Positions 1 through 37,464 of a stretch of DNA of 37,464 bases are shown here, in pieces. Where the stretch lies: the IMG/VR virus record IMGVR_UViG_2541047680_000009, positions 1-37,464 of that record; one strand, 5' to 3'. Below the pieces are notes generated by a model, which searched no databases, had not been told where the DNA came from, and worked only from the letters and a program-made list of their open reading frames with translations. This stretch comes from a virus. Taxonomy: Duplodnaviria; Heunggongvirae; Uroviricota; Caudoviricetes. Both the position numbers and the translations under genes were made by a program. Within the stretch, counting starts at the first letter, position 1; each line of letters starts with the position of its first letter.

Positions 1-69
1 CTGCAGCGGCGTTGCCGGTGATTTACTGAAAATACCCTGCGGTTTACGGTTAATGGTCAGAGTTACCAT
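1..69 (-). CDS. 5' end of an unidentified protein-coding gene that runs off the window start
   Basis: Minus-strand ATG at 69-67 with GAGG about 12 nt upstream; reading frame stays open to position 1 (MVTLTINRKPQGIFSKSPATPLQ...). Too short for a family call. Confidence 0.3.
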   Translation of the reverse strand, partial: MVTLTINRKPQGIFSKSPATPLQ

Positions 70-664
70 CAATTTTGTTACCTCGCGCTGTCAATGGAAG
101 TAGTACCTCATCCGATATCTGAAAATGTTTTCCGGTGGATGTTACAGCGAATTTCATGTAAGACATGTTGTTGTCGGTATTGTTCAGTACTGTGCGTTGT
201 GAGCGTATTCGTTATCAGACAGAGGGGCAGGGAACAAACGTCAGAGGTTAAGGATATCCGGGAACAAATGGCGTAAACGGACATCTCAGTGCCTGAGAAA
301 CAGTACAGGTCAGGCCATCATGGCCTGCAAACAGAGCCCTGGCGACCCCGTGGCCGAAAACGAAACAATAACCCGCGCGCAGTGCGAGGAATCCGGATGT
401 GAAGCAATCAGCAGGTAATATTAATGGCAGGACCAGCAGGTTCTTTAAACAAACGAACATGCTGTAATTGATATTTTGCTTATTGTATTTTCTTTTTAGT
501 TATTAAATTAATTTATTTACGAAAAATTTTCTGCAGATACAGGATGGGAATTCAGGGTGTCATCACGCCTTATGATGACACCCTTCCCCTGGTTGTGGAA
601 AACCGAAGGATATATCAGGTTCAGCAACAAAATCAGTGAGCTGAAAGATACCAGTCCCCCAGCT

Positions 665-1684
665 TCAGCAGCTTTCACGTAAACATAAACAGGGCTCAAT
701 GAATATCTGATTGCTCCAGTTACCTTCTTTAATTCGTTCCAGCAAAACATTTCCTGCTTCCAGACCAATTTTCCTGTGAGGAACGGCCATTGTTGTTAAT
801 GATGGTTGGCAAACTTTGCTGACGTCACTGTCACCAAATCCTACTACGGCGAGCTCGTCTGGAACTTTGATCCGTCTTCGTTGACATTCATAGAGAACAC
901 CGCAGGCTAACTCATCTGACACACATACCAGGGCATCCAGTTCCGGCCATGCGAGCAAAAATTCCGGTAGTTGTGATGCTCCGGTGGAAAAAACAGGTGG
1001 CAGAGCAGCGTTAATAACACGGTTGGGAGACATATGATGGCGTAACATAGCTTTATACCATCCCTGTAAATGCTGCTGAAAGATCCACTGTTCCTGGTTA
1101 GCGCATAGCAAACCGATATTCTGATAACCACGTTGTACCAGCATATCCGTCAGCTCGAACATTGCTGCAACATTATCAATACCAATGTTGATATCTATCG
1201 GATCAGTACGAATGGCACCGATTTCTATAACAGGAATCGAGGCATTTTTGAGCAAGTGACGCACGGTACTATTATGCTCAACACTAAGCAAAATTGCTGC
1301 AGCGATATTAGAAGCCAGCAGGGTTTCCAGCAGTTTTTCTTCTTGTTCCAGACGATGGCGTGACTCAGCCAGGATTATTTGATACCCCGCTGGTTGTAGC
1401 ACATGTTGCAGCCCGGCAAACATTTCCGTGCATCCCGCTTCAGCCAGGTTTGGCACGACCATTGCGATCGTGTGTGAAGATGCCGATGCCAGTGCGCTTG
1501 CAGTGAGGTTGGGCATATACCCTAATTCATTAACTGCGGCTTCAATCTTCTCCCTCAATTTATCTGAAACTTGTTCGGGAGTGCGTAACGCTCTGGATAC
1601 AGTCATTGTGCCAACTCCCGCGAGTTGCGCGACATCAGCAATAGTGACTTTACCTGTACTACGACGTTTTCGGGTTATTGCCAT
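665..1684 (-). CDS. LacI-family transcriptional repressor (GntR/IdnR-like sugar-acid regulator type)
   Basis: 339-aa ORF; N-terminal HTH VTIADVAQLAGVGTMTVSRALR typical of LacI/GalR family, followed by a periplasmic-binding-protein-like sugar-binding core; AGGA RBS 6-7 nt upstream of the ATG at 1684; divergent from the PTS operon. Confidence 0.9.
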   Translation of the reverse strand: MAITRKRRSTGKVTIADVAQLAGVGTMTVSRALRTPEQVSDKLREKIEAAVNELGYMPNLTASALASASSHTIAMVVPNLAEAGCTEMFAGLQHVLQPAGYQIILAESRHRLEQEEKLLETLLASNIAAAILLSVEHNSTVRHLLKNASIPVIEIGAIRTDPIDINIGIDNVAAMFELTDMLVQRGYQNIGLLCANQEQWIFQQHLQGWYKAMLRHHMSPNRVINAALPPVFSTGASQLPEFLLAWPELDALVCVSDELACGVLYECQRRRIKVPDELAVVGFGDSDVSKVCQPSLTTMAVPHRKIGLEAGNVLLERIKEGNWSNQIFIEPCLCLRESC

Positions 1685-1816
1685 ACAAAATCCTGCTCAG
1701 CGACTACATATGGAGATCTTTTATTACTTATCATCAACGGCTTCCTGCACTGCCAGTAGCAGAGTATACCTCTTAATATCTGCCATAAGTCTGGATTTAA
1801 TCAGTGAAATCTATTT

Positions 1817-1864
1817 TGATAGCGCTATCACAAATTCGAACAATACCTCCTGATAGCGCTATCT
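1817..1864. promoter_or_regulatory. Two LacI-type operator palindromes in the divergent control region (TGATAGCGCTATCA at 1817-1830; TGATAGCGCTATCt at 1851-1864)
   Basis: Perfect 14-bp palindrome with central CG, repeated 34 bp downstream with one mismatch, located between the regulator start (1684) and the PTS EIIA start (1936). Confidence 0.55.
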
Positions 1865-1935
1865 TTGTGATATTGATCGCAGATATACCGTCGTTACTTG
1901 AATACATTCTGGTCATATAAATAAGAAATTAGGGG

Positions 1936-2385
1936 GTGGGAGTGCTTAATATCTGGCTTTCTGATTCAACAATCGCATTACGAAAGAATGCCGCAACCTG
2001 GCAGCAGGCATTAGATATCTGTGCCAGACCGTTACTGGATGCAGAGATAATTACGACGGATTATCTCAGTGCGATAAAGACACAACATGAAAAACTGGGG
2101 CCTTATTATGTCCTGGCACCCGGGCTGGCCATGCCGCATGCCCGACCAGAAGAAGGGGCAAAAGGATTAGGTTTATCATTATTAAAACTTGAAGAAGGTG
2201 TCAGTTTTCATACAGAGGAATTTGATCCTGTAGATGTTATCATTTTACTTGCCGCACCAGACAAACACAGTCATATCGAAATGATATCTGCACTGGCTGA
2301 GTTATTCTCCAGCGAAAAAGATTTACATGAATTGCATCAGGCTCGCAATGTGGAGGAAATAAAAAAGATAATTTCACGGTTCTGA
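1936..2385 (+). CDS. PTS EIIA component, L-ascorbate (UlaC/SgaA) family
   Basis: 149-aa ORF with the motif [20 protein letters not shown], matching the conserved UlaC-type EIIA active-site region ([20 protein letters not shown]). Start ambiguous: GTG at 1936 or 1942, RBS AGGGGGTGGG. Confidence 0.85.
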   Translation: [149 protein letters not shown]

Positions 2386-2463
2386 TTACATTATAAATTC
2401 AGTCTTTTCACAACATTGCGCCGTTGCGTGATGGGACTTCTTCAACTTAAAATGGTGAATATA

Positions 2464-2736
2464 ATGAAAATTATGGCTATTTGTGGCTCAGGGCTTGGTA
2501 GTAGTTTTATGGTCGAAATGAATATTAAAAAAGTTCTGAAAAAAATGGATATAGAGGCGGAAGTGGAACATTCCGATCTCTCATCAGCAACGCCAGGGGC
2601 TGCCGATTTATTTGTGATGGCCAAAGATATTGCTGCCAGTGCCAGCGTACCGGAAAGTCAGTTGGTGGTTATCAACAACATCATTGATATTAATGAACTC
2701 GAAACGCAACTGCGTAACTGGTTAGCAAAACAATAA
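2464..2736 (+). CDS. PTS EIIB component, L-ascorbate (UlaB/SgaB) family
   Basis: N-terminus MKIMAICGSGLGSS matches the phospho-cysteine motif of UlaB-type EIIB (AVCGNGQGSS); ORF open from 2416, alternative ATGs at 2452 and 2473. Confidence 0.8.
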   Translation: MKIMAICGSGLGSSFMVEMNIKKVLKKMDIEAEVEHSDLSSATPGAADLFVMAKDIAASASVPESQLVVINNIIDINELETQLRNWLAKQ

Positions 2737-2752
2737 CCTTAATTGAAGCGAG

Positions 2753-4147
2753 GTGGATATGTTTATCCTTGAAACGCTGAATTTTGTTGTTGATATACTT
2801 AAAGTGCCCGCGATACTGGTCGGCTTGATTGCCTTAATTGGTCTGGTTGCCCAGAAAAAATCTTTTTCAGATGTTGTTAAAGGTACAATTAAAACTATTC
2901 TCGGCTTTATTGTACTGGGCGGTGGTGCCACTGTTTTGGTTGGTTCGTTAAATCCTCTTGGGAGTATGTTTGAACATGCCTTTAATATTCAGGGCATCAT
3001 TCCGAATAATGAGGCTATTGTTTCTATTGCGCTGGAAAAATATGGCGCATCGACGGCCCTTATTATGGCATTTGGTATGGTGGCGAATATTATTGTTGCC
3101 CGCTTTACCCGCCTTAAATATATCTTCCTGACCGGACACCACACATTTTACATGGCCTGCATGATTGGTGTGATTCTGACAGTGGCTGGTTTTGAAGGTA
3201 TATCACTGGTCTTTACCGGTTCTCTTATTCTGGGACTTGTGATGGCATTTTTCCCGGCATTAGCACAACGCTATATGAAGCGTATTACGGGGAATGATGA
3301 CATTGCTTTTGGTCACTTTGGCACTCTGGGATATGTACTTTCTGGCTGGATTGGCAGCGTGTGCGGTAAAGGTTCCCGCTCCACCGAAGAGATGAATTTG
3401 CCCAAAAATCTGAGCTTCCTGCGCGACAGTTCCATCTCTATTTCTCTTACGATGATGGTGATTTATCTGATCATGGCGATCAGTGCTGGTCGTGAGTTCG
3501 TTGAAAGCCAGTTCAGTGGTGGTCAAAACTACCTTGTCTACGCCATCATAATGGCCATCACCTTCGCTGCTGGTGTATTTATTATTCTGCAAGGCGTGCG
3601 TTTAATCCTTGCTGAAATAGTTCCGGCATTTACCGGGTTTTCAGAAAAGCTGGTGCCGAATGCCCGTCCGGCCCTCGATTGCCCGGTTGTGTATCCGTAT
3701 GCGCCAAACGCAGTGTTAGTTGGTTTCTTGTTTAGCTTTTTTGGCGGTCTGGTAGGGCTATTTTTGTTGGGACAGATGAAACTGGTGTTGATTCTTCCGG
3801 GTGTCGTTCCTCACTTTTTTACCGGGGCGGCTGCTGGCGTATTTGGTAACGCTACGGGGGGACGTCGTGGCGCAATGATTGGTGCTTTTGCGAATGGCTT
3901 ATTGATTACCTTCCTGCCAGTACTGTTATTGCCGGTTCTTGGGGCGATAGGCTTTGCTAATACGACCTTTTCCGATGCAGATTTTGGTGCTGTCGGCATC
4001 GTCCTCGGAAACCTGGCACGTTATCTCTCACCTTTTGCCATCACCGGACTTGTAGTAGCGCTATTTGTGCTGCTGGTTGCCTGGAACATTTTCGCCAGTA
4101 ACAAAATCGCTGCCAAAGCGCAGAAGAAGAGTGGAGCCAAATCATGA
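2753..4147 (+). CDS. PTS EIIC permease, L-ascorbate (UlaA/SgaT) family
   Basis: 464-aa polytopic membrane protein; conserved blocks GTIKTILGF, LTGHH, IILQGVRL, LDCPVVYPYAPNAV align with UlaA; stop overlaps the next start (ATGA). Confidence 0.9.
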   Translation: MDMFILETLNFVVDILKVPAILVGLIALIGLVAQKKSFSDVVKGTIKTILGFIVLGGGATVLVGSLNPLGSMFEHAFNIQGIIPNNEAIVSIALEKYGASTALIMAFGMVANIIVARFTRLKYIFLTGHHTFYMACMIGVILTVAGFEGISLVFTGSLILGLVMAFFPALAQRYMKRITGNDDIAFGHFGTLGYVLSGWIGSVCGKGSRSTEEMNLPKNLSFLRDSSISISLTMMVIYLIMAISAGREFVESQFSGGQNYLVYAIIMAITFAAGVFIILQGVRLILAEIVPAFTGFSEKLVPNARPALDCPVVYPYAPNAVLVGFLFSFFGGLVGLFLLGQMKLVLILPGVVPHFFTGAAAGVFGNATGGRRGAMIGAFANGLLITFLPVLLLPVLGAIGFANTTFSDADFGAVGIVLGNLARYLSPFAITGLVVALFVLLVAWNIFASNKIAAKAQKKSGAKS

Positions 4148-4974
4148 ATGTTAAAGAATTGACTCAATTTGCACGGGATATACGTATCCAGACGCTTAAA
4201 TCATTAACTCATCTCGGCTTCGGTCATTATGGTGGCAGCATGTCGGTTGTGGAAACGCTGGCAGTGCTTTATGGCGCTGTAATGAAAATTGATCCTGCTG
4301 CTCCCGACTGGCCTGAGCGTGACTATTTTATCCTGTCCAAAGGACATGCCGGACCTGCTCTCTACAGTACTCTGGCGCTGAAAGGCTACTTTCCACTGGA
4401 AGAATTAAGCACCTTAAATCAGAACGGAACCCGCTTACCAAGTCATCCGGATCGGCTAAAAACGTGTGGTGTTGATAGCACCACAGGATCGCTGGGGCAG
4501 GGGATATCCATTGCCGGAGGGATGGCGCTGTCGCATAAACTGGCGGGGCGCAAGAATCGGGTTTTTTGTATTGTCGGCGATGGCGAACTTAATGAAGGCC
4601 AATGTTGGGAAGCTTTCCAGTTTATCGCGCATCATCGTTTGAATAACCTCACTGTGTTTGTGGACTGGAACAAACAGCAGCTTGATGGTCAACTGGATGA
4701 AATTATTAATCCATTTGATTTGGAAGGAAAATTCCGGGCTTTCGGTTTTGATGTCGTGACAGTGAAGGGCGATGATATTGAGGGCTTGTTGAATGTAGTT
4801 AAACCTGTCCTGCCAGCTGAGGCCAGACCGAGAGTGGTCATTCTCGATAGCATTAAAGGGCAGGGGGTGCCGTGTCTCGAGCAACTCAGTAATTCTCATC
4901 ACTTACGCCTCACAGAAGAGATGAAGGGGACGCTAAACGAAACAATTCGCCAACTGGAGGCTATGCATGATTAA
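4144..4974 (+). CDS. Transketolase, N-terminal (TPP-binding) subunit
   Basis: 276 aa; motifs SKGHAGPALY and GSLGQGIS...GDGELNEGQCWEA typical of the thiamine-diphosphate binding half of split transketolases; translationally coupled to flanking genes. Confidence 0.9.
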   Translation: MNVKELTQFARDIRIQTLKSLTHLGFGHYGGSMSVVETLAVLYGAVMKIDPAAPDWPERDYFILSKGHAGPALYSTLALKGYFPLEELSTLNQNGTRLPSHPDRLKTCGVDSTTGSLGQGISIAGGMALSHKLAGRKNRVFCIVGDGELNEGQCWEAFQFIAHHRLNNLTVFVDWNKQQLDGQLDEIINPFDLEGKFRAFGFDVVTVKGDDIEGLLNVVKPVLPAEARPRVVILDSIKGQGVPCLEQLSNSHHLRLTEEMKGTLNETIRQLEAMHD

Positions 4975-5920
4975 TCTCGCACCGGCAGGACAAAAAGACA
5001 GCATTGAAATGCGCAAAGTTTATGCAGATTTTATCGCGCAACAGAGTAAAAACGTCAGTTCTGTCATTGCTCTTGAGGCTGATTTAATGAGTTCCATGGC
5101 AATGGACAGCGTGGCGCAGGATTATCCAGATCACGTCATTAATTGCGGCATTATGGAAGCCAATGTTATCGGCACAGCTGCAGGGCTGGCCTTAACCGGG
5201 CGCAAGCCATTCGTGCATACCTTTACCGCATTTGCCAGTCGTCGCTGTTTTGATCAACTCTTTATGTCGCTTGATTACCAGGGCGCTAACGTCAAAGTTA
5301 TAGCTTCTGATGCGGGTGTTGCTGCTTGCCACAATGGCGGAACACATATGTCATTTGAAGATATGGGAATTGTGCGCGGGCTGGCGCATTCGGTGGTGAT
5401 GGAGATGACAGATGCCGTAATGTTCAGCGATATCTTGCGTCAACTCGTTGCACTGGAAGGATTTTATTGGATTCGTACCATTCGGAAGCAAGCAGCGAGT
5501 ATTTACGCACCAGGTACAACCTTTACAATTGGCAAAGGGCAGGTATTACGTGAAGGTACGGATGTCACCTTAATTGCTAATGGCATTATGGTGGTGGAAG
5601 CCCTGGAGGCCGCACGTCAACTTGAGCTGGCTGGGGTAAGTGTAGCGGTGATTGATATGTTTACGCTCAAACCCGTTGATCGGATGTTAATTAAAAATTA
5701 TGCCGAAAAAACAGGACGGATCGTAACATGTGAAAACCATAGTATTCATAATGGATTAGGTTCAGCGGTTGCTGAAGTGCTTGTAGAAACTTGTCCTGTG
5801 CCCATGCGTCGGGTGGGGGTTAAAGAGCGGTATGGCCAGGTTGGAACTCAGGACTTTTTACAGAGAGAGTACGGGTTAACCGCGCAAGATATTGTGGCGG
5901 CAGCCAGAGAGCTATTGTAA
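4967..5920 (+). CDS. Transketolase, C-terminal (pyrimidine-binding) subunit
   Basis: 317 aa; transketolase pyrimidine-binding and C-terminal domain organisation; start overlaps the N-terminal subunit gene by 8 nt. Confidence 0.9.
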   Translation: MINLAPAGQKDSIEMRKVYADFIAQQSKNVSSVIALEADLMSSMAMDSVAQDYPDHVINCGIMEANVIGTAAGLALTGRKPFVHTFTAFASRRCFDQLFMSLDYQGANVKVIASDAGVAACHNGGTHMSFEDMGIVRGLAHSVVMEMTDAVMFSDILRQLVALEGFYWIRTIRKQAASIYAPGTTFTIGKGQVLREGTDVTLIANGIMVVEALEAARQLELAGVSVAVIDMFTLKPVDRMLIKNYAEKTGRIVTCENHSIHNGLGSAVAEVLVETCPVPMRRVGVKERYGQVGTQDFLQREYGLTAQDIVAAARELL

Positions 5921-6108
5921 TTCATGGAGTTTGTTTACCATTCTGTTTTTCTTAAAAGTGAGTGTCTGTGCGGTCACTAAACTCGGTAATAAAGCAGTTC
6001 ATTGCAGGATAAGAAGCGTTTGGTTGTGTCGTTTTACCGTAAGAACCGACCGCCGTATGTATCCATTAAGCCAGTATTGGTAACGTAGGTGCCCACCTTT
6101 TCAAACTG

Positions 6109-6291
6109 GTGGGCGCCTGTTATGGAGCAAAAACATTATCCGCAGAACCCCGCAGATCATTTTCAAATGAGTTAAACTTCAAATGGTTAAACTGGCTTTG
6201 CAACCAGGAGCCTCTGTTGCCCGTATTGCCCGGGAACACGATATCAATGATAACCTCCTGTTCAAATGGCTCAGACTCTGGCAGAACGTAA
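6109..6291 (+). pseudogene. Relic of an IS3-family transposase OrfA (HTH region), frameshifted and truncated
   Basis: Two overlapping frames give ...RRSFSNE... and ...KLQMVKLALQPGASVARIAREHDINDNLLFKWLRLWQ, resembling the N-terminal HTH of IS2/IS3-type OrfA (such as ...[25 protein letters not shown]); no intact transposase follows. Confidence 0.45.
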
Positions 6292-6375
6292 GGTAAAGGG
6301 AGATGAAAAAGGCAATAGCAGAACTGAGTGACAGTGAAACCATTCTGGCGTACAGGGTTGGATGGTGAAACTGAT

Positions 6376-6407
6376 AAAAAACCCCCTCTGAAATTCTGTC
6401 AGAGGGG
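6376..6407 (-). terminator. Rho-independent terminator (minus strand) with no recognisable upstream gene
   Basis: 9-bp perfect stem CCCCTCTGA/TCAGAGGGG (6383-6407), 7-nt loop, followed on the minus strand by TTTTTT (6381-6376). Confidence 0.45.
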
Positions 6408-6624
6408 CTAGTCAATAAGGGAATAATATTCAACATGAAGATGTCTTCTGGGAATGTTTATATAGCAAATGCTTTCACTCCGGTAATTAATTTCCGTGAT
6501 TAACTGCTTTCGATCAATAAAGGAATTGCAAAAGTGTGATCTTGTTCACGACATCGTGGATAATAATATGCCTGATGTCTGAATCCGGAAACAGTGCTCT
6601 GGCGGGTTTCATGTGAAGTTGACG

Positions 6625-6658
6625 GATAAAAAATCCGCACGACCAGACAGACGTGCGG
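6625..6658 (-). terminator. Rho-independent terminator (minus strand), orphan
   Basis: Stem CCGCACG/CGTGCGG (6635-6641 / 6652-6658), 10-nt loop, followed on the minus strand by ATTTTTTAT. Confidence 0.4.
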
Positions 6659-7146
6659 TTTACGAAATTCGTAACAAGAGGCTTTTCTACGGATCACGTG
6701 GTGCGTGCCACGTGAAATTTTTGTAGCGCAAAATGTGTGATGTGTAAATACAAGGAAGGAAAAAAGTTAAATCGGTGGAAGTCCATACCTGCCACATGTA
6801 CGTCTGCATTCCTCGTTTTGAACAGAATTCTCACCAGACATCGTGAATTTCTCATTCAATCATCAGAGATATTACCCAGGATTTTTATTGTTTTGTGATA
6901 TCAGCAGTGCAGGTATACAGACGTTAAAGTAATCAGGTTTATTATAACCACCTTTACAAAGTTGTATATGTTTATAATTTAATGATTTTAATGCCAGTCG
7001 TTTTCTGCTGCTTAAATTGAGGTCGCATATTATACACAATAATATTCCTGGCATTATTAAATTAATAAGAGAGGATTCTTATCACTGTATTTTTGCTCCG
7101 CACTACCGTTCTGGCTGGTGAAGTAATAATACAGGAGAATAACAGA

Positions 7147-8241
7147 ATGCTTAAAAGACGTGATGCTTTTTTAAAGAAAAGCGCGCTGGCAGTGAGTGTG
7201 GCCCTGCTGCTCTCATCTCAGGCTTTGGCTCATAAAACAATTACTGATTCAACGGCGGGTATTATCTGGATTGATAATGGCACTCAGTCACTTGAAAGTG
7301 CAAGTGTGATTGACAGAAATGGAAATGCTAACGGTGATGGTAGTGTTACTGGAAAAAACTTTGCTGTTGGTTCCGATGCAATAATTTGGGATGCGGATAA
7401 ATCCATGGCAACAGGAAATAAGACAGCTGTTTTTAATGCAGACAACAGTGTCGCTCTGGGGTATGGCTCTCAGGTGAATGGAGAAAGCAATGTACTTTCT
7501 GTAGGGGCCGGTCCTTCAGGATATGGATTTTCAGTTGATGGTGCACCGGAAACCCGCCGGATTATAAATGTTTCAGATGGTGTTAAGGATAGTGATGCGG
7601 CCACAAAAGGACAGATGGACAACGCCATTGCAGGTGCTGTACGGGTGTCGGGGGATGCCCTGCGCGGTGAGATAGGAGCTGTCTACCGTGATGCTGTTTC
7701 TCATACTGACAGTCAGGTCACAGCAGTACGTGATGAACTGAAGGCAGAGGGAGACAGTCTGCGCGGTGAGATAGGCGGTGTATACAGAGATGCCCGTGCT
7801 CATACTGACAGTCAGGTTACAGCAGTACGTGATGAACTCAGCAGGGATATTATTGCAGTCACATCGGCAGCGGTGGCGCAGACGGATGCAGCAATAGCCT
7901 CAAATACAGCAGCGATAAGGAATAACAGTCATCGTCTGGATTTGACGGAAGCCTGGCAGAAGATGGCGACAGAGAGAATGAATAATATGCAGGAGCAGAT
8001 TAAAGAGAACCGGAAGGAGTTAAGGGAGAGTGCAGCCCAGAGCGCGGCACTGGCCGGTCTTTTCCAGCCATACAGTGTTGGAAAATTTAACGCGACAGCA
8101 GCCGTTGGTGGTTACCGTGATGAGCAGGCCATTGCGGTGGGCGTGGGCTACCGTTTCAGAGAGAATGTGGCAGGAAAAGTTGCAGTTGCTGCAGGTGGGT
8201 CATCCGCATCGTGGAATGCTGGTGTGAATTTTGAGTTCTGA
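7147..8241 (+). CDS. Trimeric autotransporter adhesin, YadA/Eib-like (signal peptide, coiled-coil stalk, C-terminal beta-barrel anchor)
   Basis: AGGAG RBS 8 nt upstream of the ATG at 7147; signal peptide [28 protein letters not shown]; central heptad-rich repeats; C-terminal anchor ending ...AVGVGYRF...GVNFEF as in YadA-family translocator domains. AT-rich upstream region. Confidence 0.8.
7651..7848 (+). repeat. In-frame tandem duplication, 2 x 99 bp (33-aa coiled-coil unit) inside the adhesin gene
   Basis: Copy 1 at 7651-7749 and copy 2 at 7750-7848 are roughly 80% identical; they encode [33 protein letters not shown] and [33 protein letters not shown]. Confidence 0.85.
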
Positions 8242-8264
8242 CAGGTCAGGATTTAGATATCTGT

Positions 8265-8283
8265 CCCGGGGGGAGTCCCCCGG
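8265..8283 (+). terminator. GC-rich perfect palindrome just after the adhesin stop (possible terminator or protein-binding site)
   Basis: CCCGGGGGAgTCCCCCGGG, 24 nt downstream of the adhesin stop codon; no strong T-tract, so terminator function is uncertain. Confidence 0.35.
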
Positions 8284-8302
8284 GATATAATGAGGTACAG
8301 AG

Positions 8303-8758
8303 ATGCTGGATATAATCCTGGCGACGAGAGATATTTATTTTGAAAAAGCCCTGCGAGAGGTATTTGGAACCGTAAGCAGTCGAATCAGATATATAGAAGA
8401 TGCCATATCAGACAGAAGAAGGGTGCAGTCAGGCAGGTCATTCAGATATTATTTTGTATTCTGTGATGATGAGTATACAGATATTGTTCGTATTCTTTTT
8501 ACCGGAGAGGCCTGCTGTATTCTGAATAAGTCGATGCTGAATCTGAGAGCGGCCGGAGGTGTGTTGACGCTGGAAGAGCGCAGAGCGGTACTGAACCGGT
8601 ATTACAGAGGTTTAAGTATTGCGGAGATTACAGAAGAGACGGGGCAGAATGACAAGACGGTATACGGTCATCTTCGTCGTGCACTGCAGCGGTCTGGATT
8701 CCGGAAGGGGCGTTTTATAAAGGGGAGAGAAGTGACGGGGGATTCAGGTGTTGAATAA
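8303..8758 (+). CDS. Small LuxR/GerE-type HTH transcriptional regulator
   Basis: 151 aa; C-terminal LTLEERRAVLNRYYRGLSIAEITEETGQNDKTVYGHLRRALQR fits the LuxR-type HTH pattern (LT.RE..VL......G.S..EIA.....S..TV..H); GAGG RBS 8 nt upstream. Confidence 0.6.
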   Translation: MLDIILATRDIYFEKALREVFGTVSSRIRYIEDAISDRRRVQSGRSFRYYFVFCDDEYTDIVRILFTGEACCILNKSMLNLRAAGGVLTLEERRAVLNRYYRGLSIAEITEETGQNDKTVYGHLRRALQRSGFRKGRFIKGREVTGDSGVE

Positions 8759-9114
8759 TGTATCTTATATTGTGATATCGGTGCTGCTGCTGTTATTTTT
8801 TGTTGTATTTGTGACGAATGGTTAAGAATAAAACATGAGTTGGTGATTATCAGGACAGGTTGCTTGTATATGAAGATAACAAAGGCGGCATTTATTTTTG
8901 CGCTGTCAGTGTGGAGTGTTGCTGTGATATGTCTTTTATTATTTGTACTGATTGTTCTGGGATAGCCATAGTGAAATAAAAAGCTGTCTGAATTAAATTA
9001 TTTTGCACACATGTTTTAATTCTGCACTGAATTCAGAATGGGTAATCAGTGACCGTCCTGACGGTCACTTTAAAGAAAAGGCATTTACACAGAATTACTG
9101 ACAGGCTCTGGCTG

Positions 9115-9453
9115 TCATTCGGCCGATGAACAGTTGCTTAAGACAGGATTATCATTCCCTTCCACCAGATTGGCTTTTTTACCTTTTGTGTACAGTTTAT
9201 ATGAGTATCTTTTATTGATGGCTTCGTAATTGGCTCCGGAGGCCATTTTCATTAGCTGCATAGGTATCATCTCATCCATCTGATTAATCACTGCATATGA
9301 GTTCCCAGCAGTGGTGTTGATATAGACCACCTCCATTGTCTTATTTCCATTACAGACATAAGCTGTTTTTGAGATTTCTTTTGTGGCAGCGGAGGATACC
9401 ATACTGTTGCTAACAAGAATGAGTGCAAGGACGGGAGAAGAGTATTTTTTCAT
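9115..9453 (-). CDS. MliC/PliC-family inhibitor of C-type lysozyme (secreted)
   Basis: 112 aa with N-terminal signal peptide; conserved MliC-like pattern Y.C...........V.Y.......A....................SGA.Y.......Y.....KG..A............C (YVCNGNK...VVYINT...MASGANYEA...YTKGKKANL...SNC); AAGGAG RBS 7 nt upstream. Confidence 0.6.
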   Translation of the reverse strand: MKKYSSPVLALILVSNSMVSSAATKEISKTAYVCNGNKTMEVVYINTTAGNSYAVINQMDEMIPMQLMKMASGANYEAINKRYSYKLYTKGKKANLVEGNDNPVLSNCSSAE

Positions 9454-32482: not shown

Positions 32483-32733
32483 TGAAAGAATACCGCTATT
32501 CCGGCCCGGCCAGCGGCGTCACGCTGTCGGACGGAACCGAAATCCTGCTCTGGCCGGGGAAGACGGTTTCCCTGCCGGAGGAGCATGACTACGTGAAGGT
32601 ACTGGTGGCGCTGAAACATCTGACGCCGGTACCTGAAGAGACTAAACCCGCCGGCACACCGGCTGTGCAGTCACCAAAGCGCAGAAGCAGCAGTGACAGC
32701 GAAGTGAAAACGGAGGACACCCATGGCAGCTAA
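32479..32733 (+). CDS. Hypothetical protein (84 aa)
   Basis: ATGA overlap with the upstream gene; immediately precedes the sheath gene. Confidence 0.45.
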   Translation: MMKEYRYSGPASGVTLSDGTEILLWPGKTVSLPEEHDYVKVLVALKHLTPVPEETKPAGTPAVQSPKRRSSSDSEVKTEDTHGS

Positions 32734-34150
32734 CTATCTGCATGGTCCCGAAACCATTGAGGTGGAAAACGGTGCCCGCCCGGTTAAAACGGTGAAATCT
32801 GCCGTTATTGGCCTGATTGGTACCGCCCCGATGGGGGATGTCAATACGCTGGTACAGTGCCTGTCTGAGAAAGGCGCAGCGGCATTTGGCAGCCAGTTCA
32901 CCGGCTTTACCATTCCGCAGGCGCTGGATGCGATTTATGACCATGGTGCAGGCACCGTTCTGGTCATTAACGTCCTCGACCCGGCGAAACATAAAACGGC
33001 GATCGAGGATGAGGTGGTTACCTTTGACAAATCGACAGGGCAGGCCAGACTGGCGCATCCGGTTGTCGCTAATGTGGTGGTGAAAAACAGTGAAGGCAGC
33101 ACCACCCACACGGCGAACACGGACTACCGTGTTGATGCGCAGGCGGGTGTGCTCACGAACCTGGGCAAGGCTATTGAGGCCGGTGGCAGCGTGAAGGTGA
33201 GCTATGAGTACGCGGACCCGTCGAAGGTGACTGCGGCGGACATCATCGGCGGGGTGAACAGCGCCGGAAACCGAACCGGCATGAAGCTGCTTAACGACAG
33301 CTTCAACCTGTACGGCTATTTCGCCAAAATTCTGATTGCGCCGGTGTTCTGCACCCAGAAGAGTGTCGCAGTTGAGCTTATCGCCATGGCAGAGAAGCTG
33401 GGCGCGGTAACCTACATTGATGCGCCTGTCGGTACCACCTTTGCACAGGCTCTGGCAGGTCGTGGCCCGGAAGGCACCATCAACTTCAATACCAGCTCCG
33501 ACCGCGTCCGTCTGTGCTATCCGCATGTGAAGGTATATGACCCGGTGACAAACACAGAGCGTCTGGAGCCGCTCAGCCAGCGTGCAGCAGGTCTGCGTGC
33601 CAGAGTCGATCTGGACAAGGGCTACTGGTGGTCATCCTCCAATCAGGAGATTCTGGGGATCACCGGCGTGGAGCGCCAGCTGTCCGCGATGATTGATGAC
33701 CCGCAGAGTGAGGTGAACCTGCTTAACGAACAGGGGATCACCACGGTATTCAGCAGTTACGGCAGCGGCCTTCGTCTGTGGGGTAACCGGACGGCAGCAT
33801 GGCCAACGGTCACCCATATGCGTAACTTTGAGAACGTTCGCCGCACCGGTGATGTGATCAACGAGTCCATTCGTTATTTCAGCCAGCAGTACATCGACAT
33901 GCCGATTACTCAGGCGCTGATTGATGCACTGACGGAGTCGGTCAACGCCTACGGTCGCAAAATGACTGGTGATGGTGCGGTACTGGGCTTCCGTTGCTGG
34001 TTTGATCCGGCCCGCAATCCGGAGACGGAGCTGGCCGCCGGGCACCTGTTGCTGAGCTACAAATATACGCCACCACCGCCGCTGGAGCGACTGACGTTTG
34101 AGACTGAGATCACCTCGGAATACCTGTTAACCCTGAAAGGGGGCAACTGA
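32723..34150 (+). CDS. Tail sheath protein (Mu L-like)
   Basis: 475 aa; contractile-sheath size and conserved N-terminal region; followed by the tube gene. Confidence 0.85.
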   Translation: MAANYLHGPETIEVENGARPVKTVKSAVIGLIGTAPMGDVNTLVQCLSEKGAAAFGSQFTGFTIPQALDAIYDHGAGTVLVINVLDPAKHKTAIEDEVVTFDKSTGQARLAHPVVANVVVKNSEGSTTHTANTDYRVDAQAGVLTNLGKAIEAGGSVKVSYEYADPSKVTAADIIGGVNSAGNRTGMKLLNDSFNLYGYFAKILIAPVFCTQKSVAVELIAMAEKLGAVTYIDAPVGTTFAQALAGRGPEGTINFNTSSDRVRLCYPHVKVYDPVTNTERLEPLSQRAAGLRARVDLDKGYWWSSSNQEILGITGVERQLSAMIDDPQSEVNLLNEQGITTVFSSYGSGLRLWGNRTAAWPTVTHMRNFENVRRTGDVINESIRYFSQQYIDMPITQALIDALTESVNAYGRKMTGDGAVLGFRCWFDPARNPETELAAGHLLLSYKYTPPPPLERLTFETEITSEYLLTLKGGN

Positions 34151-34671
34151 TGTCAAAGATTGAGATAAACCGCATCACGAATGCCAACATCTATCTGGAT
34201 GGTACTAACCTGCTGGGACGGGCTGAGGAAGTCAAACTCCCCGATGTCTCCATGATTATGCAGGAACACAAGGCGCTGGGGATGGTGGGTAAGGTGGAAC
34301 TCCCGGCTGGTTTTGACAAGCTGGAAGGCGAAATCAAATGGAACAGCTTTTACCGCGATGCGATGCTGTCTGCCGCGAACCCGTACAGGTCGCTGGCACT
34401 GCAGTGTCGTTCCAGCGTCCAGCGCTACAGCTCGCAGGGGCTGATTGACGAAATCCCGCTGGTCACCTTCCTGACGATTATGTTCAAGAAGAACCCGCTG
34501 GGGACGTTCAAACAGCACGAGAACGCCGAGTTCTCCAGTAGCTTCACCTGCACGTATATCAGACAGGTACTGGATGGTGAAGAGCTGCTGCAACTGGACT
34601 ATCTGGCCAACATCTTCCGGGTCGGCGGTGTTGATCAACTGACTGACTACCGTATCAATATCGGGGGCTGA
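34150..34671 (+). CDS. Tail tube protein (Mu M-like)
   Basis: 173 aa; start overlaps the sheath stop; position between sheath and chaperone. Confidence 0.7.
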   Translation: MSKIEINRITNANIYLDGTNLLGRAEEVKLPDVSMIMQEHKALGMVGKVELPAGFDKLEGEIKWNSFYRDAMLSAANPYRSLALQCRSSVQRYSSQGLIDEIPLVTFLTIMFKKNPLGTFKQHENAEFSSSFTCTYIRQVLDGEELLQLDYLANIFRVGGVDQLTDYRINIGG

Positions 34672-34673
34672 CG

Positions 34674-34955
34674 GTGAGTGTTGAACTGACGGATAAAGGA
34701 GGACGATGTGCGGCACTGGGCATGTCAAATGGTACGTGGTTTACCCTCCTTGATATTCCGGGGGTGGAAACCCTTTTTAATACCCGTAAAACCAATGACC
34801 CGATTGACTGCACACGTTCAAAGGCCCGCAAACTGGCGGATTTGATTGAAGCATGGGAGCCTCCCGACCACTGGTTCTCCGGCATCGGCAAATCTGAGGG
34901 AAAGACGCTTCTCATCGCTTTCCTGCGTAACTGCAAGGGGTTTCGCACTTGCTGA
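34674..34955 (+). CDS. Hypothetical protein (93 aa), GTG start
   Basis: ORF directly after the tube gene; no family recognised. Confidence 0.35.
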   Translation: MSVELTDKGGRCAALGMSNGTWFTLLDIPGVETLFNTRKTNDPIDCTRSKARKLADLIEAWEPPDHWFSGIGKSEGKTLLIAFLRNCKGFRTC

Positions 34956-35052
34956 CATCACAGGGGCTCCGGCCCCTTCTTCTTAATCTCCTTTAATATC
35001 CGTCACGCGCTTCTCCCGACATACTGCCCTGAACTTACACAGGAGCACAATC

Positions 35053-35388
35053 ATGTCACAGACCCCATCCGATACTTTTAAATTGTCTTATCCCTTCACC
35101 ACTGCTGCAGGCACCAGAATTGAGCTGGTTGAACTGAAACGCCTGACGGTAAAAGACCTGAAGCAGGTGCGCAAAATCAGCAAAAACCCGGCAGACTGGG
35201 ACGAACCGCTGATTGCCCGCAGTACTGGTCTTCTCCCGGAAGATCTCGACAATATGGATCTGGCTGATTACCTGCAGTTACAGAAACGATTTCAGCTCAT
35301 CACGGGGATGGGTGAGAGCAACCAGGGCGCTGACGCAGGCGCAGGGGCTGCTGGCGAGATGGTTCCGGTTTCAGCCGGGGGAGATTGA
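35053..35388 (+). CDS. Tail assembly chaperone (G-like); a frameshift at a G-run near its 3' end would extend it into the overlapping ORF ending at 35470 (GT-like product)
   Basis: 111-aa ORF directly upstream of the tape measure gene; a second ORF in the frame offset by +1 (35213-35470) overlaps its 3' end and has no independent plausible start. Confidence 0.6.
   Translation: MSQTPSDTFKLSYPFTTAAGTRIELVELKRLTVKDLKQVRKISKNPADWDEPLIARSTGLLPEDLDNMDLADYLQLQKRFQLITGMGESNQGADAGAGAAGEMVPVSAGGD
35377..35381 (+). promoter_or_regulatory. Candidate programmed-frameshift slippery run (GGGGG) in the tail chaperone gene
   Basis: Frame A reads ...GCC GGG GGA GAT TGA; frame B (offset +1) reads ...CCG GGG GAG ATT GAT GCC... 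and continues for 28 more codons to 35470. Confidence 0.45.
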
Positions 35389-35544
35389 TGCCCTCGATAC
35401 TGACGATCTGGAGATGTGGCTGGAGCAGGCTGAAGAGCAAATCAAAAGCGAGTACGGCGACAAATCATAGTACAGACAGCCGCCAGTAGCGGCTGTTCTG
35501 CGTTATCCCCTCACGTCTTTTCACCTTCCCCGGAGGTTAACCAC

Positions 35545-37464
35545 TATGTCGGGACAGTTTTCAGTCGGCGTTGTTATCGGCGGGATGATTGGCAGCACAT
35601 TCCGTTCTGCAATGAGCGGTACCCGCCGTGCGCTTGATTCCCTGAGCGATACCTCACGCCGCCTGCAGGAACGTCAGAACGCTTTAACCCGTGCAACAGA
35701 ACGTTATGGTCAACTGGGTTCTTCCCGGATGCAGCATCTCAACAGCGAGCTGCTGCGGGTAAGCCGCACCATGGAGCAAATTGAGCGCCAGCAGCGCCGT
35801 CTGTCAGCGGCATCCGCTACCAGTGATGCGCTGAAAGCTAACCGCATGGCGCTGTATGGTCAGGGGATTGAAGCGTATGGCATGGCACAGACTGTTTATC
35901 ATACGGTTTCCCCTGCCGTTCAGCAGTCCATGTCTTTTCAGGACAAAATGATTGATATGTCGATCACCGCAAAATATGACAATAAAACGCGGGATGCACT
36001 TGCCGGACAGATAAAAGGCTGGGCGCTTAAATACAATCAGTATCAGGATGAGCTGCAGGAGGCGGTGGGTTCACTCATCAGCGACAATATTGATAATGTG
36101 TCAGATATCGGTTTTCTGATGCCGGATATTGCCCGCGCGGCAACGGCAACACGCACGTCTGCTCAGGACTGGGCAAAAGTGGCCGCAGTCTGGCAAAACT
36201 CCCTGAAAGGTGCGGCCAGAGATTTTGGTGCCGTTCAGAATATTATGGCTTATGCCGGTGACCAGGGGTCATTTGAAATCCCGGATCAGGTCAAGTGGAT
36301 GCAGTCCCTGGCCCCAATGATGGCGGGTCTTGCCAGTGGAAAAGAGGCTGTTGCTGAAATCGGGGCCAGTCTCCAGATAGCAAAAATCGGTGCAGGTTCC
36401 ACCGACGAAGCAGCCAATAATTTTAAAAACTTTCTTACCAAAATTTTTGCCCGCGATACTCAGAAACAGTTTGCTGATCTGGGTATTGATTTGCAGGGAT
36501 CTATTGCGAGTTATAAAGCTGCGGGGATCTCTCCGATTGAAGGGATGTTGAGTGTTATAGAACGTTACCTCAATGCCAAAAGCCCCGAAGCGCTGGCCGG
36601 CTTCAAATCAGCCATGAAAATAAAGAATGATACGGCAAGAGATGAGGCACTTCAGGCTCTGGCGAAAAACTTTGGTCTGGGCGATATGTTCGCGGATATG
36701 CAGGTCATGGCATTTATCCGCCCGATGCTGGCCAACATGGACAGATATCGAGAGATCCGTGCCGGTGCTCTCAGGGCTGCGGATAACGATTTGCTTGCCA
36801 GTGCTTATGATCAGCGGCTGAAATCTCCCCTTGAAGCCACTAAAACACTTATGGTCAGCAGTCGCGATCTGGCAATTACGCTGGGCGATCAATTAGCTCC
36901 ATCTTTTATTTCTCTGACTCAGGAACTGCTCCCACTCATTCAGGGGACAAAACACTGGGTAGCGACTCACCCGCAATTTGTCAGTGGGGCTTTTAAGCTC
37001 ATCAGTGCGCTCCTTGCGATTAAGATAGCGACTATTGGTCTCAAACTGGGGCTGAATCTCCTTATTTCCCCCTTTGTGAACGTCTGGAAAACTACTGTTT
37101 TACTCCGGACCAACTGGCATCGACTGACTACCGCACTCGGAGAAGGTGGCAAATTACGCTGGCTTGTCACTGGATTCAGCCGACTGACCAGCGGAGGACT
37201 GAAACTCAGCAAAGTTCTGGCGGGCAGCCTCGTTCGCGGTTTTATGAGCGCTGCACGTGCCGTTCTCTGGATTGGGCGAGCGCTGATGATGAATCCCATC
37301 GGTCTCGTTATCACCGCTGTCGCGACAGCAGCTTACCTTATCTACCGCAACTGGGGGGCTGTCAGTGGTTGGTTTAAACAGCGCTGGGCTGACATTCAGG
37401 AAGCCTTTAACGGCGGCATTGTGGGAATTGGTAAGTTGCTGATTAACTGGTCGCCGGCAGGCCT
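35545..37464 (+). CDS. Tail tape measure protein (partial, continues beyond the window)
   Basis: GGAGG RBS 9 nt upstream of the ATG at 35545; 640 codons open to the window end; alpha-helical, Ala/Gln-rich N-terminus and C-terminal hydrophobic segments typical of tape measure proteins. Confidence 0.8.

Follow-up and report, generated by a model that had tools for sequence, protein, structure and literature searches.

A conserved UUU_C as the probable +1 frameshift site in the gene for the tail assembly chaperone in a BcepMu-like prophage

The DNA analysed here (the window, 37,464 nucleotides (nt) in all) is the IMG/VR virus record IMGVR_UViG_2541047680_000009, assigned to the Caudoviricetes. 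Judged by its genes, it carries a transposable, Mu-like prophage whose tail module is of the P2 type. In this module a gene for a tail assembly chaperone is located directly upstream of the tape measure gene, which begins at 35546. The chaperone open reading frame (ORF) starts with an ATG, occupies positions 35053–35388 on the plus strand and encodes the short, major product of 111 amino acids. This protein matches the Pfam family PF10109 (Phage_TAC_7, “E, or 41 or 14”) with E = 5.5e-21 and 74.8 bits against a cut-off of 25, and the ORF is labelled “phage tail assembly protein” by the Prokaryotic Genome Annotation Pipeline (PGAP). The Phage_TAC_7 domain comprises residues 8–81, and the final ~30 amino acids form a variable tail rich in Gly and Ala. 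Across relatives, the part of this frame (frame 0) that follows Phe80 is between 2 and 32 codons long.

A second ORF on the plus strand, offset by +1 and mechanically delimited as 35213–35470 (85 amino acids), covers the last 176 nt of the chaperone ORF. The window contains 89 ORFs of at least 90 amino acids, exceeding the non-overlapping capacity of 37 kb. Many of them must therefore be overlapping or off-frame, and an overlap of 85 codons is in itself unremarkable. An earlier note on this DNA had described both ORFs, placed the chaperone directly 5' of the tape measure gene and proposed that a programmed frameshift fuses the two frames at a GGGGG run two codons before the first stop, which would add 28 amino acids. 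The ORFs, their overlap and the gene order are as described there, the run is found at 35377–35381 (GCC GGG GGA GAT TGA, with the TGA at 35386–35388), and the arithmetic of the extension is correct. This interpretation was borne out in part. A fusion into the +1 frame is supported by a conserved E'-like domain that lacks a conserved start; the GGGGG site and the extension of 28 amino acids did not hold, and the comparison with relatives points instead to UUU_C at 35290–35293, ~90 bases further upstream, with an extension of 58 amino acids.

The segment here called E' consists of 58 +1-frame codons (SSSRGWVRATRALTQAQGLLARWFRFQPGEIDALDTDDLEMWLEQAEEQIKSEYGDKS) at 35294–35470 on the plus strand, ending with a TAG stop at 35468–35470. 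The +1 peptide matches PHROG 8286 with E = 3e-33, and the +1 ORF alone weakly matches the Pfam family Phage_P2_GpE (PF06528), with E = 0.022. PGAP calls the stretch a “GpE family phage tail protein” in those relatives that have an ATG there. The +1 frame is free of stops and conserved across 135 distinct relatives, apart from one broken variant. By homology and conservation, the +1-frame E' peptide is real. Start codons for E' are not conserved, and two candidates for an independent start were set aside for this reason. The ATG of the relatives is ACG in the window (35333–35335), and the GTG at 35312, the only one nearby, is not kept among relatives. Frameshift fusions are classically recognised by a conserved domain that has no conserved start and overlaps a chaperone gene at its 3' end. 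Furthermore, an alignment of 21 predicted fusions from diverse lineages matched P2 gpE+E' over 120 columns and in both parts (hhalign 96.6%, E = 6.4e-10), while a PDB sequence search with the fusion profile returned nothing significant. A programmed frameshift joining the chaperone to E' is very likely on these sequence comparisons, and production of a chaperone-E' fusion through the +1 frame, joined upstream of about 35330, is in our view highly probable.

The position of the frame switch was bounded by comparison of 135 distinct loci, ranging from Enterobacterales to Betaproteobacteria. The relatives collected were 78 from IMG/VR, a Salmonella prophage cluster, the Pseudomonas phage Bise cluster, Ralstonia phage YO107_2 and Pseudomonas phage Komp_PAO1_1, and a further 63 loci from different bacterial species that were found using an E' profile built from an 8-sequence alignment. 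The E' segment is in the +1 frame relative to the chaperone in all these relatives, with the exception of one Pasteurella phage. Relatives lacking an open overlapping frame had been named in the earlier note as refuting the frameshift; the +1 frame is open in 135/135 distinct relatives. In the exceptional Pasteurella phage (AFS-2018a, locus L090, 720–745), E' is found in the -1 frame behind CAA AAG GGA AAG, showing that both shift directions coexist within one protein family.

Frame 0 ends shortly after a conserved Phe codon, Phe80 of the window, in many of these loci. Its stop is located 8–10 codons past the Phe in the Bise cluster and in some members of the Salmonella cluster, 6–12 codons past it in many Betaproteobacteria, and 2 codons past it in one locus (L160, TTT TTT CGC TGA). 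Stops in the +1 frame, on the other side, come as near as 3 codons 5' of the same Phe (L087, L088, L163, L168, L171). When stops were mapped over all 135 loci, the +1 frame had stops up to codon -4 and then none until the E' stop, bar the broken variant. Frame 0 was clear over the 7 codons preceding the TTT, with a stop farther upstream in 5 loci, and was interrupted from +2 onward, and the third frame had stops everywhere. Counted from the first T of the Phe codon, the interval permitting a shift in all 135 loci spans -8 to +6 nt.

The proposed +1 shift cassette, CGA_UUU_C, is located within this interval at 35287–35293 on the plus strand, with the TTT of Phe80 at 35290–35292 and the C at 35293. 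An in-frame TTT followed by C was found in 135/135 distinct loci, and these are the sole invariant nucleotides between -8 and +6. The same combination is present in BcepMu (TCC TTT CGC) and in Komp_PAO1_1 (GTG TTT CGG). This invariance is more than that of a conserved Phe, since control Phe codons toggle between TTT and TTC: two invariant Phe residues of E' do so at 92/43 and 112/23, and the other Phe codons of the chaperone at 117/126. The residue following the Phe varies (Q, R, L, H), yet its codon begins with C in every case. Furthermore, where Arg precedes the shift Phe, it is encoded by the rare CGA in 111/112 loci, compared with 27/759 Arg codons (3.6%) elsewhere in the same ORFs, suggesting that the codon just 5' of the slip site is under selection. 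Just past the site, the +1-frame residues W-[VILM] and then L-W-x-A-x-G-LLARWF are conserved from E. coli to Betaproteobacteria. The same nucleotides carry a conserved frame-0 pattern too, as expected of a dual-coding stretch that starts at the site. Taken from these patterns, UUU_C at 35290–35293 is probably the shift site.

A natural variant bears on the same question. Six complete E. coli genomes carry a prophage in which a CAG-to-TAG change at 35323 (loci L004, L024 and L025) interrupts frame 0, cutting the short chaperone to 90 amino acids, and the gene is flagged as a pseudogene by PGAP. This prophage is found at two insertion sites, adjoining otsB in at least 3/6 genomes and inside cbtA in 2/6, suggesting that the variant spread after gaining the stop and was probably still mobile then. 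Such a spread would be tolerable only if the shift takes place upstream of 35323, which gives modest support to the upstream site.

The GGGGG run at 35377–35381 was rejected as the slip site on the comparison with relatives. A +1 or -2 slip on this run would add the last 28 amino acids only, the product reading ...VSAG(G)EIDALDTDDLEMWLEQAEEQIK. No other homopolymer in the overlap is as good, and the run is similar to the verified -2 site of Mu, CGG GGG CGA; in the window lineage frame 0 stays open across it, and it is intact in the ~10 distinct relatives whose frame 0 reaches it. In KP12 and Phi06_2974B (82% identity), however, frame 0 stops at a TAG equivalent to 35365–35367, 5' of the run, and this TAG is common to most distinct close relatives (78 IMG/VR relatives with 40 distinct junction sequences). 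Comparing the slip site in related prophages, as the earlier note had suggested, thus went against the site it had chosen, since the run is not conserved either: some relatives read CCT or CCA and then GGGG, and others have CCG AGT in its place (Q-P-S-E, no run). In the +1 frame the run is part of the Pro-Gly-Glu codons of E', and this frame is under purifying selection already 5' of it. From 35341 on, all substitutions among close relatives are synonymous in the +1 frame, including AGA/AGG, TTC/TTT, CGG/AGA, GGG/GGC/GGT/GGA and CTG/CTA/CTC/TTG, and most are non-synonymous in frame 0. A fusion at the run would also drop the most conserved part of E', L-W-x-A-x-G-LLARWFRFQP. A slip at the G run is consequently very unlikely.

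Variants in which the G run is shorter by one G recur in the databases (loci L080 and L159; proteins P0003, P0004, P0005 and P0007). They were seen in IMG/VR, in Erwinia tracheiphila and in 8–12 Logan contigs, and in them frame 0 enters the last 29 amino acids of E' (...VSAGEIDAL...). Such variants may reflect sequencing errors at the homopolymer, or they may be real mutants whose only fusion product is truncated. Database proteins of exactly 138 amino acids that span the fusion were discarded as indel variants or assembly errors, with junctions at several places. They are uninformative on the site, because any single-base shift in the overlap yields 138 amino acids.

Three further explanations were weighed. 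A +1 frameshift could occur elsewhere in the overlap of this lineage, at ACG_GGG_A (35301–35307) or A_GGG_G (35343–35347), as short G runs exist in the window and the stop bounds of the close cluster permit any position from about 35276 to 35364. Both runs of four G are broken in close relatives, with position 35304 varying G/T/A/C and the fourth G of the second candidate, position 35347, varying G/C/T/A, and both candidates were rejected. Distant relatives have their frame-0 stop 2–12 codons from the TTT, the +1-frame residues right after the TTT are conserved, and the TAG-35323 variant appears to have been mobile; a shift at another site is therefore unlikely. It is rather improbable, too, that E' is a separate small protein made by internal initiation or translational coupling without any frameshift (45 amino acids in the PGAP call). 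Many relatives do have an ATG 6–7 codons 5' of the LLARW motif with a PGAP coding sequence starting there, and PHROG 8286 is made up of such stand-alone calls, but the window has ACG at this position and no other conserved start, and the ATG is missing or located elsewhere in other lineages. In all 135 loci an open and conserved +1 frame begins at the TTT, far 5' of any Met, and the homologous domain of P2 is annotated solely as an E+E' fusion. Finally, the overlap could be a non-functional relic or a chance ORF, so that the 111-amino-acid protein alone matters, given how common off-frame ORFs are in the window. From Enterobacterales to Betaproteobacteria, however, the +1 peptide is never interrupted and is better conserved than the frame-0 tail, which makes this the most improbable of the explanations.

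The switch at CGA_UUU_C is, we infer, ribosomal. Most ribosomes would translate the gene in the standard way, giving the 111-amino-acid protein, and a minority would shift +1 at 35287–35293. Peptidyl-tRNA-Phe would move from UUU at Phe80, where it forms a G:U wobble pair, to the overlapping UUC, where the pair is G:C. Decoding would then resume at AGC (35294) and continue for 58 codons until the TAG at 35468. The predicted long product has 138 amino acids, residues 1–80 being in common with the short form and followed by the 58 amino acids of E' (SSSRGWVRATRALTQAQGLLARWFRFQPGEIDALDTDDLEMWLEQAEEQIKSEYGDKS). If the analogy to lambda G/GT and P2 E/E+E' holds, the N-terminal domain common to both forms would coat the tape measure protein, while tail tube subunits would be recruited by the rare E' domain, and the low frequency of shifting would set the ratio of short to long product. 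A -2 slip at UUU_C was dismissed, as there is no option for re-pairing, and transcriptional slippage is unlikely on a run of three T. The only additional conserved element at the site is the rare CGA codon 5' of UUU. Judging from E-site effects at prfB, CGA might weaken E-site pairing through an I:A wobble.

Several observations weigh against the placement of the shift at UUU_C, or against the fusion as such. The interval of -8 to +6 nt pools bounds across lineages and hence assumes one common site; within the close cluster of the window itself the bounds narrow only to about -14 to +33 or +75 nt. Because the relatives have common ancestry, 135/135 represents far fewer independent observations. 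The prophage with the TAG at 35323 also has a frameshifted neighbouring ORF and may therefore be decaying. For the domain itself, the fusion scores 18.4 bits against PF06528, under the gathering score of 23, and an NCBIfam search gave no match. Nor was any stimulator of a shift found at the site. The A-site codons are common ones (CAG, CAA or CGC), no Shine-Dalgarno-like sequence was evident upstream when the contexts were inspected by eye, without a formal scan, and 60-nt windows from 27 diverse relatives gave mostly unremarkable z-scores for downstream RNA structure, with no consensus from RNAalifold. A low intrinsic efficiency would fit the chaperone paradigm.

The surroundings of the chaperone gene agree with a P2-type tail module. 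A tail sheath gene (32723–34150, plus strand; PF04984/PF17482) is followed by a tail tube gene (34150–34671, plus strand; PF04985, E = 3e-53), and the tape measure gene (ATG at 35546, plus strand; PF10145 PhageMin_Tail, E = 8e-21) fills the window from 35546 to 37464 and continues past its end. The prophage also encodes an rve transposase, a MuB-like AAA protein and a Mu portal. Its nearest phage record is Escherichia phage PhiKM, classified as Bcepmuvirus and 99.9% identical to the element, and the region was found in 641/5426 complete E. coli genomes (about 11%). Between the tube and chaperone genes is a small ORF of 93 amino acids (34674–34955) with a weak match to DUF7739 (E = 3.5e-5, below cut-off). 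It is kept in PhiKM, KP12 and E. coli prophages, is frameshifted in the prophages with the TAG-35323 variant, and has no counterpart at that place in P2. Between this ORF and the chaperone gene, a terminator-like hairpin (AGGGGCTCCGGCCCCT, then TCTTCTTAAT) is located at 34962–34987, an odd find within a tail operon. A stable hairpin (35473–35500, plus strand; -18.1 kcal/mol, z = -4.6) is located directly 3' of the E' stop and 46 nt 5' of the tape measure start. Its stem is conserved, with a differing loop in KP12 and Phi06_2974B, and it lacks a U tract and is therefore not a canonical terminator. It may be part of the expression unit and might affect how stable the mRNA is or how strongly the tape measure gene is expressed. 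Host DNA occupies the left part of the window (1–9450) and encodes a LacI-type regulator (665–1684, minus strand), a PTS EIIC-GAT permease (2753–4147), a split transketolase (4144–5920) and a YadA-anchor autotransporter (7093–8241).

Frameshifted chaperone pairs are textbook knowledge, with lambda G/GT, P2 E/E+E' and Mu, which uses a -2 shift, as examples. Shifts of +1 have been proposed for other tailed viruses (PMC5009743). What seems new is the combination: P2-family chaperones, encoded in BcepMu-like tail modules, that would slip +1 at about the place where P2 slips -1. A literature search, the coverage of which was incomplete, found no described +1 frameshift in BcepMu-like chaperones. 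The records of PhiKM and KP12 contain the short ORF only, and PGAP handles the E' region of relatives as separate genes or pseudogenes.

We lean slightly towards a wider reading, in which an entire clade of P2-type tail modules relies for its long chaperone on a stimulator-poor +1 shift, conserved at (CGA_)UUU_C and located at the Phe codon of the P2 -1 shift or a few residues from it, depending on the alignment. The direction of recoding would have flipped in evolution while the site and the domain stayed, and the event would be unannotated, and in the BcepMu record mis-assigned. The clade would then include BcepMu-like phages, the prophages in about 11% of complete E. coli genomes, and those of Salmonella, Pectobacterium, Pseudomonas, Ralstonia and many Betaproteobacteria. 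If true, this would fix the annotation of a very common prophage gene, in which E' is now missing or given as a separate “GpE family” gene or pseudogene, and the BcepMu reference record would be corrected. Bacteria would then also offer a natural case of +1 shifting at UUU_C that is widely conserved and lacks an obvious stimulator. The paired comparison with P2, where the same protein slips in the opposite direction at nearly the same codon, would bear on the evolution of frameshift direction. There is a consequence for prediction tools as well. The authors of PRFect state that sites far 5' of the frame-0 stop in long overlaps are seldom predicted. The site proposed here is 96 nt upstream of the frame-0 stop, and the most eye-catching homopolymer appears to be the wrong answer.

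Lambda, which slips -1 at G_GGA_AAG, provides the paradigm for tail assembly chaperones. Like gpG/gpGT, the products described here are encoded 5' of the tape measure gene, would share a common N-terminus and are presumed to include little of the long form relative to the short; in lambda the two products occur at a molar ratio of 30:1 (PMC5009743). There is no sequence similarity between the two systems. Of the features by which G/GT-type pairs are recognised, the position between the tube and tape measure genes and the start-less overlapping ORF are present in the window, and the canonical -1 heptamer in the overlap is replaced by a +1 frame with UUU_C.

The resemblance to Mu gp41 consists of membership of one Pfam family (“E, or 41 or 14”), an extension in the +1/-2 frame and a genome backbone like that of Mu. 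The -2 frameshift product of gp41, together with lambda G/GT-type chaperone pairs, was reportedly described by Xu, Hendrix and Duda in 2004. Mu slips on C_GGG_GGC_GA near its frame-0 stop (the -2 product is annotated in AF083977), whereas the G run of the window is excluded by the relatives and the proposed site is well upstream of the stop. A +1 slip, as proposed here, yields one residue fewer than a -2 slip of the Mu type.

BcepMu (AY539836) has the arrangement of the window: its chaperone is gp41, which contains TCC TTT CGC, and the E' ORF, in the +1 frame of gp41, is gp42. The record (locus L184, 4603–5364) presents gp42 as the lambda-G equivalent and gp43 as the slippage product, and gp41 and gp42 are not joined. 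The translation given for gp43 resembles an off-frame reading of GC-rich sequence over the tape measure start.

UUU_Ynn sites, as in E. coli argI, Yersinia YopN-TyeA and influenza A PA-X, have this tetranucleotide too, and tRNA-Phe is likewise inferred to move from UUU to UUC there, though the genes are unrelated. PA-X is thought to depend on a slowly decoded A-site codon, whereas the A-site codons here are common. UUU_Ynn is a documented +1-prone site in bacteria, apparently the one used in Yersinia YopN-TyeA, and the minimal cassette of PA-X is UCC_UUU_CGU (PMC5009743). The sequence TCC TTT CGC is found in BcepMu and in one betaproteobacterial relative (L172).

The closest parallel is P2, with which the window shares the gene order sheath, tube, chaperone and tape measure, the predicted fusion aligning with gpE+E' from end to end. 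In the FETUD operon of P2 the shift is -1 at T_TTT_TTG; in the window the extension is read in +1, a single UUU_C takes the place of an X_XXY_YYZ heptamer, and the frame-0 tail past the site is 31 amino acids long, compared with 6 in P2. A run of six T is present in three relatives only, and their E' is still in the +1 frame. The annotated -1 site of P2, GGT TTT TTG, contains the Phe codon at the end of the same PF10109 domain. Counted without gaps from a shared D-L motif, Phe84 of P2 corresponds to Phe80 of the window, and in the hhalign alignment the two junctions are at most four residues apart. The extensions are of nearly equal length, 57 amino acids in P2 and 58 here, and in both cases the shift, annotated in P2 and proposed in the window, is placed at a TTT Phe codon that ends the PF10109 domain.

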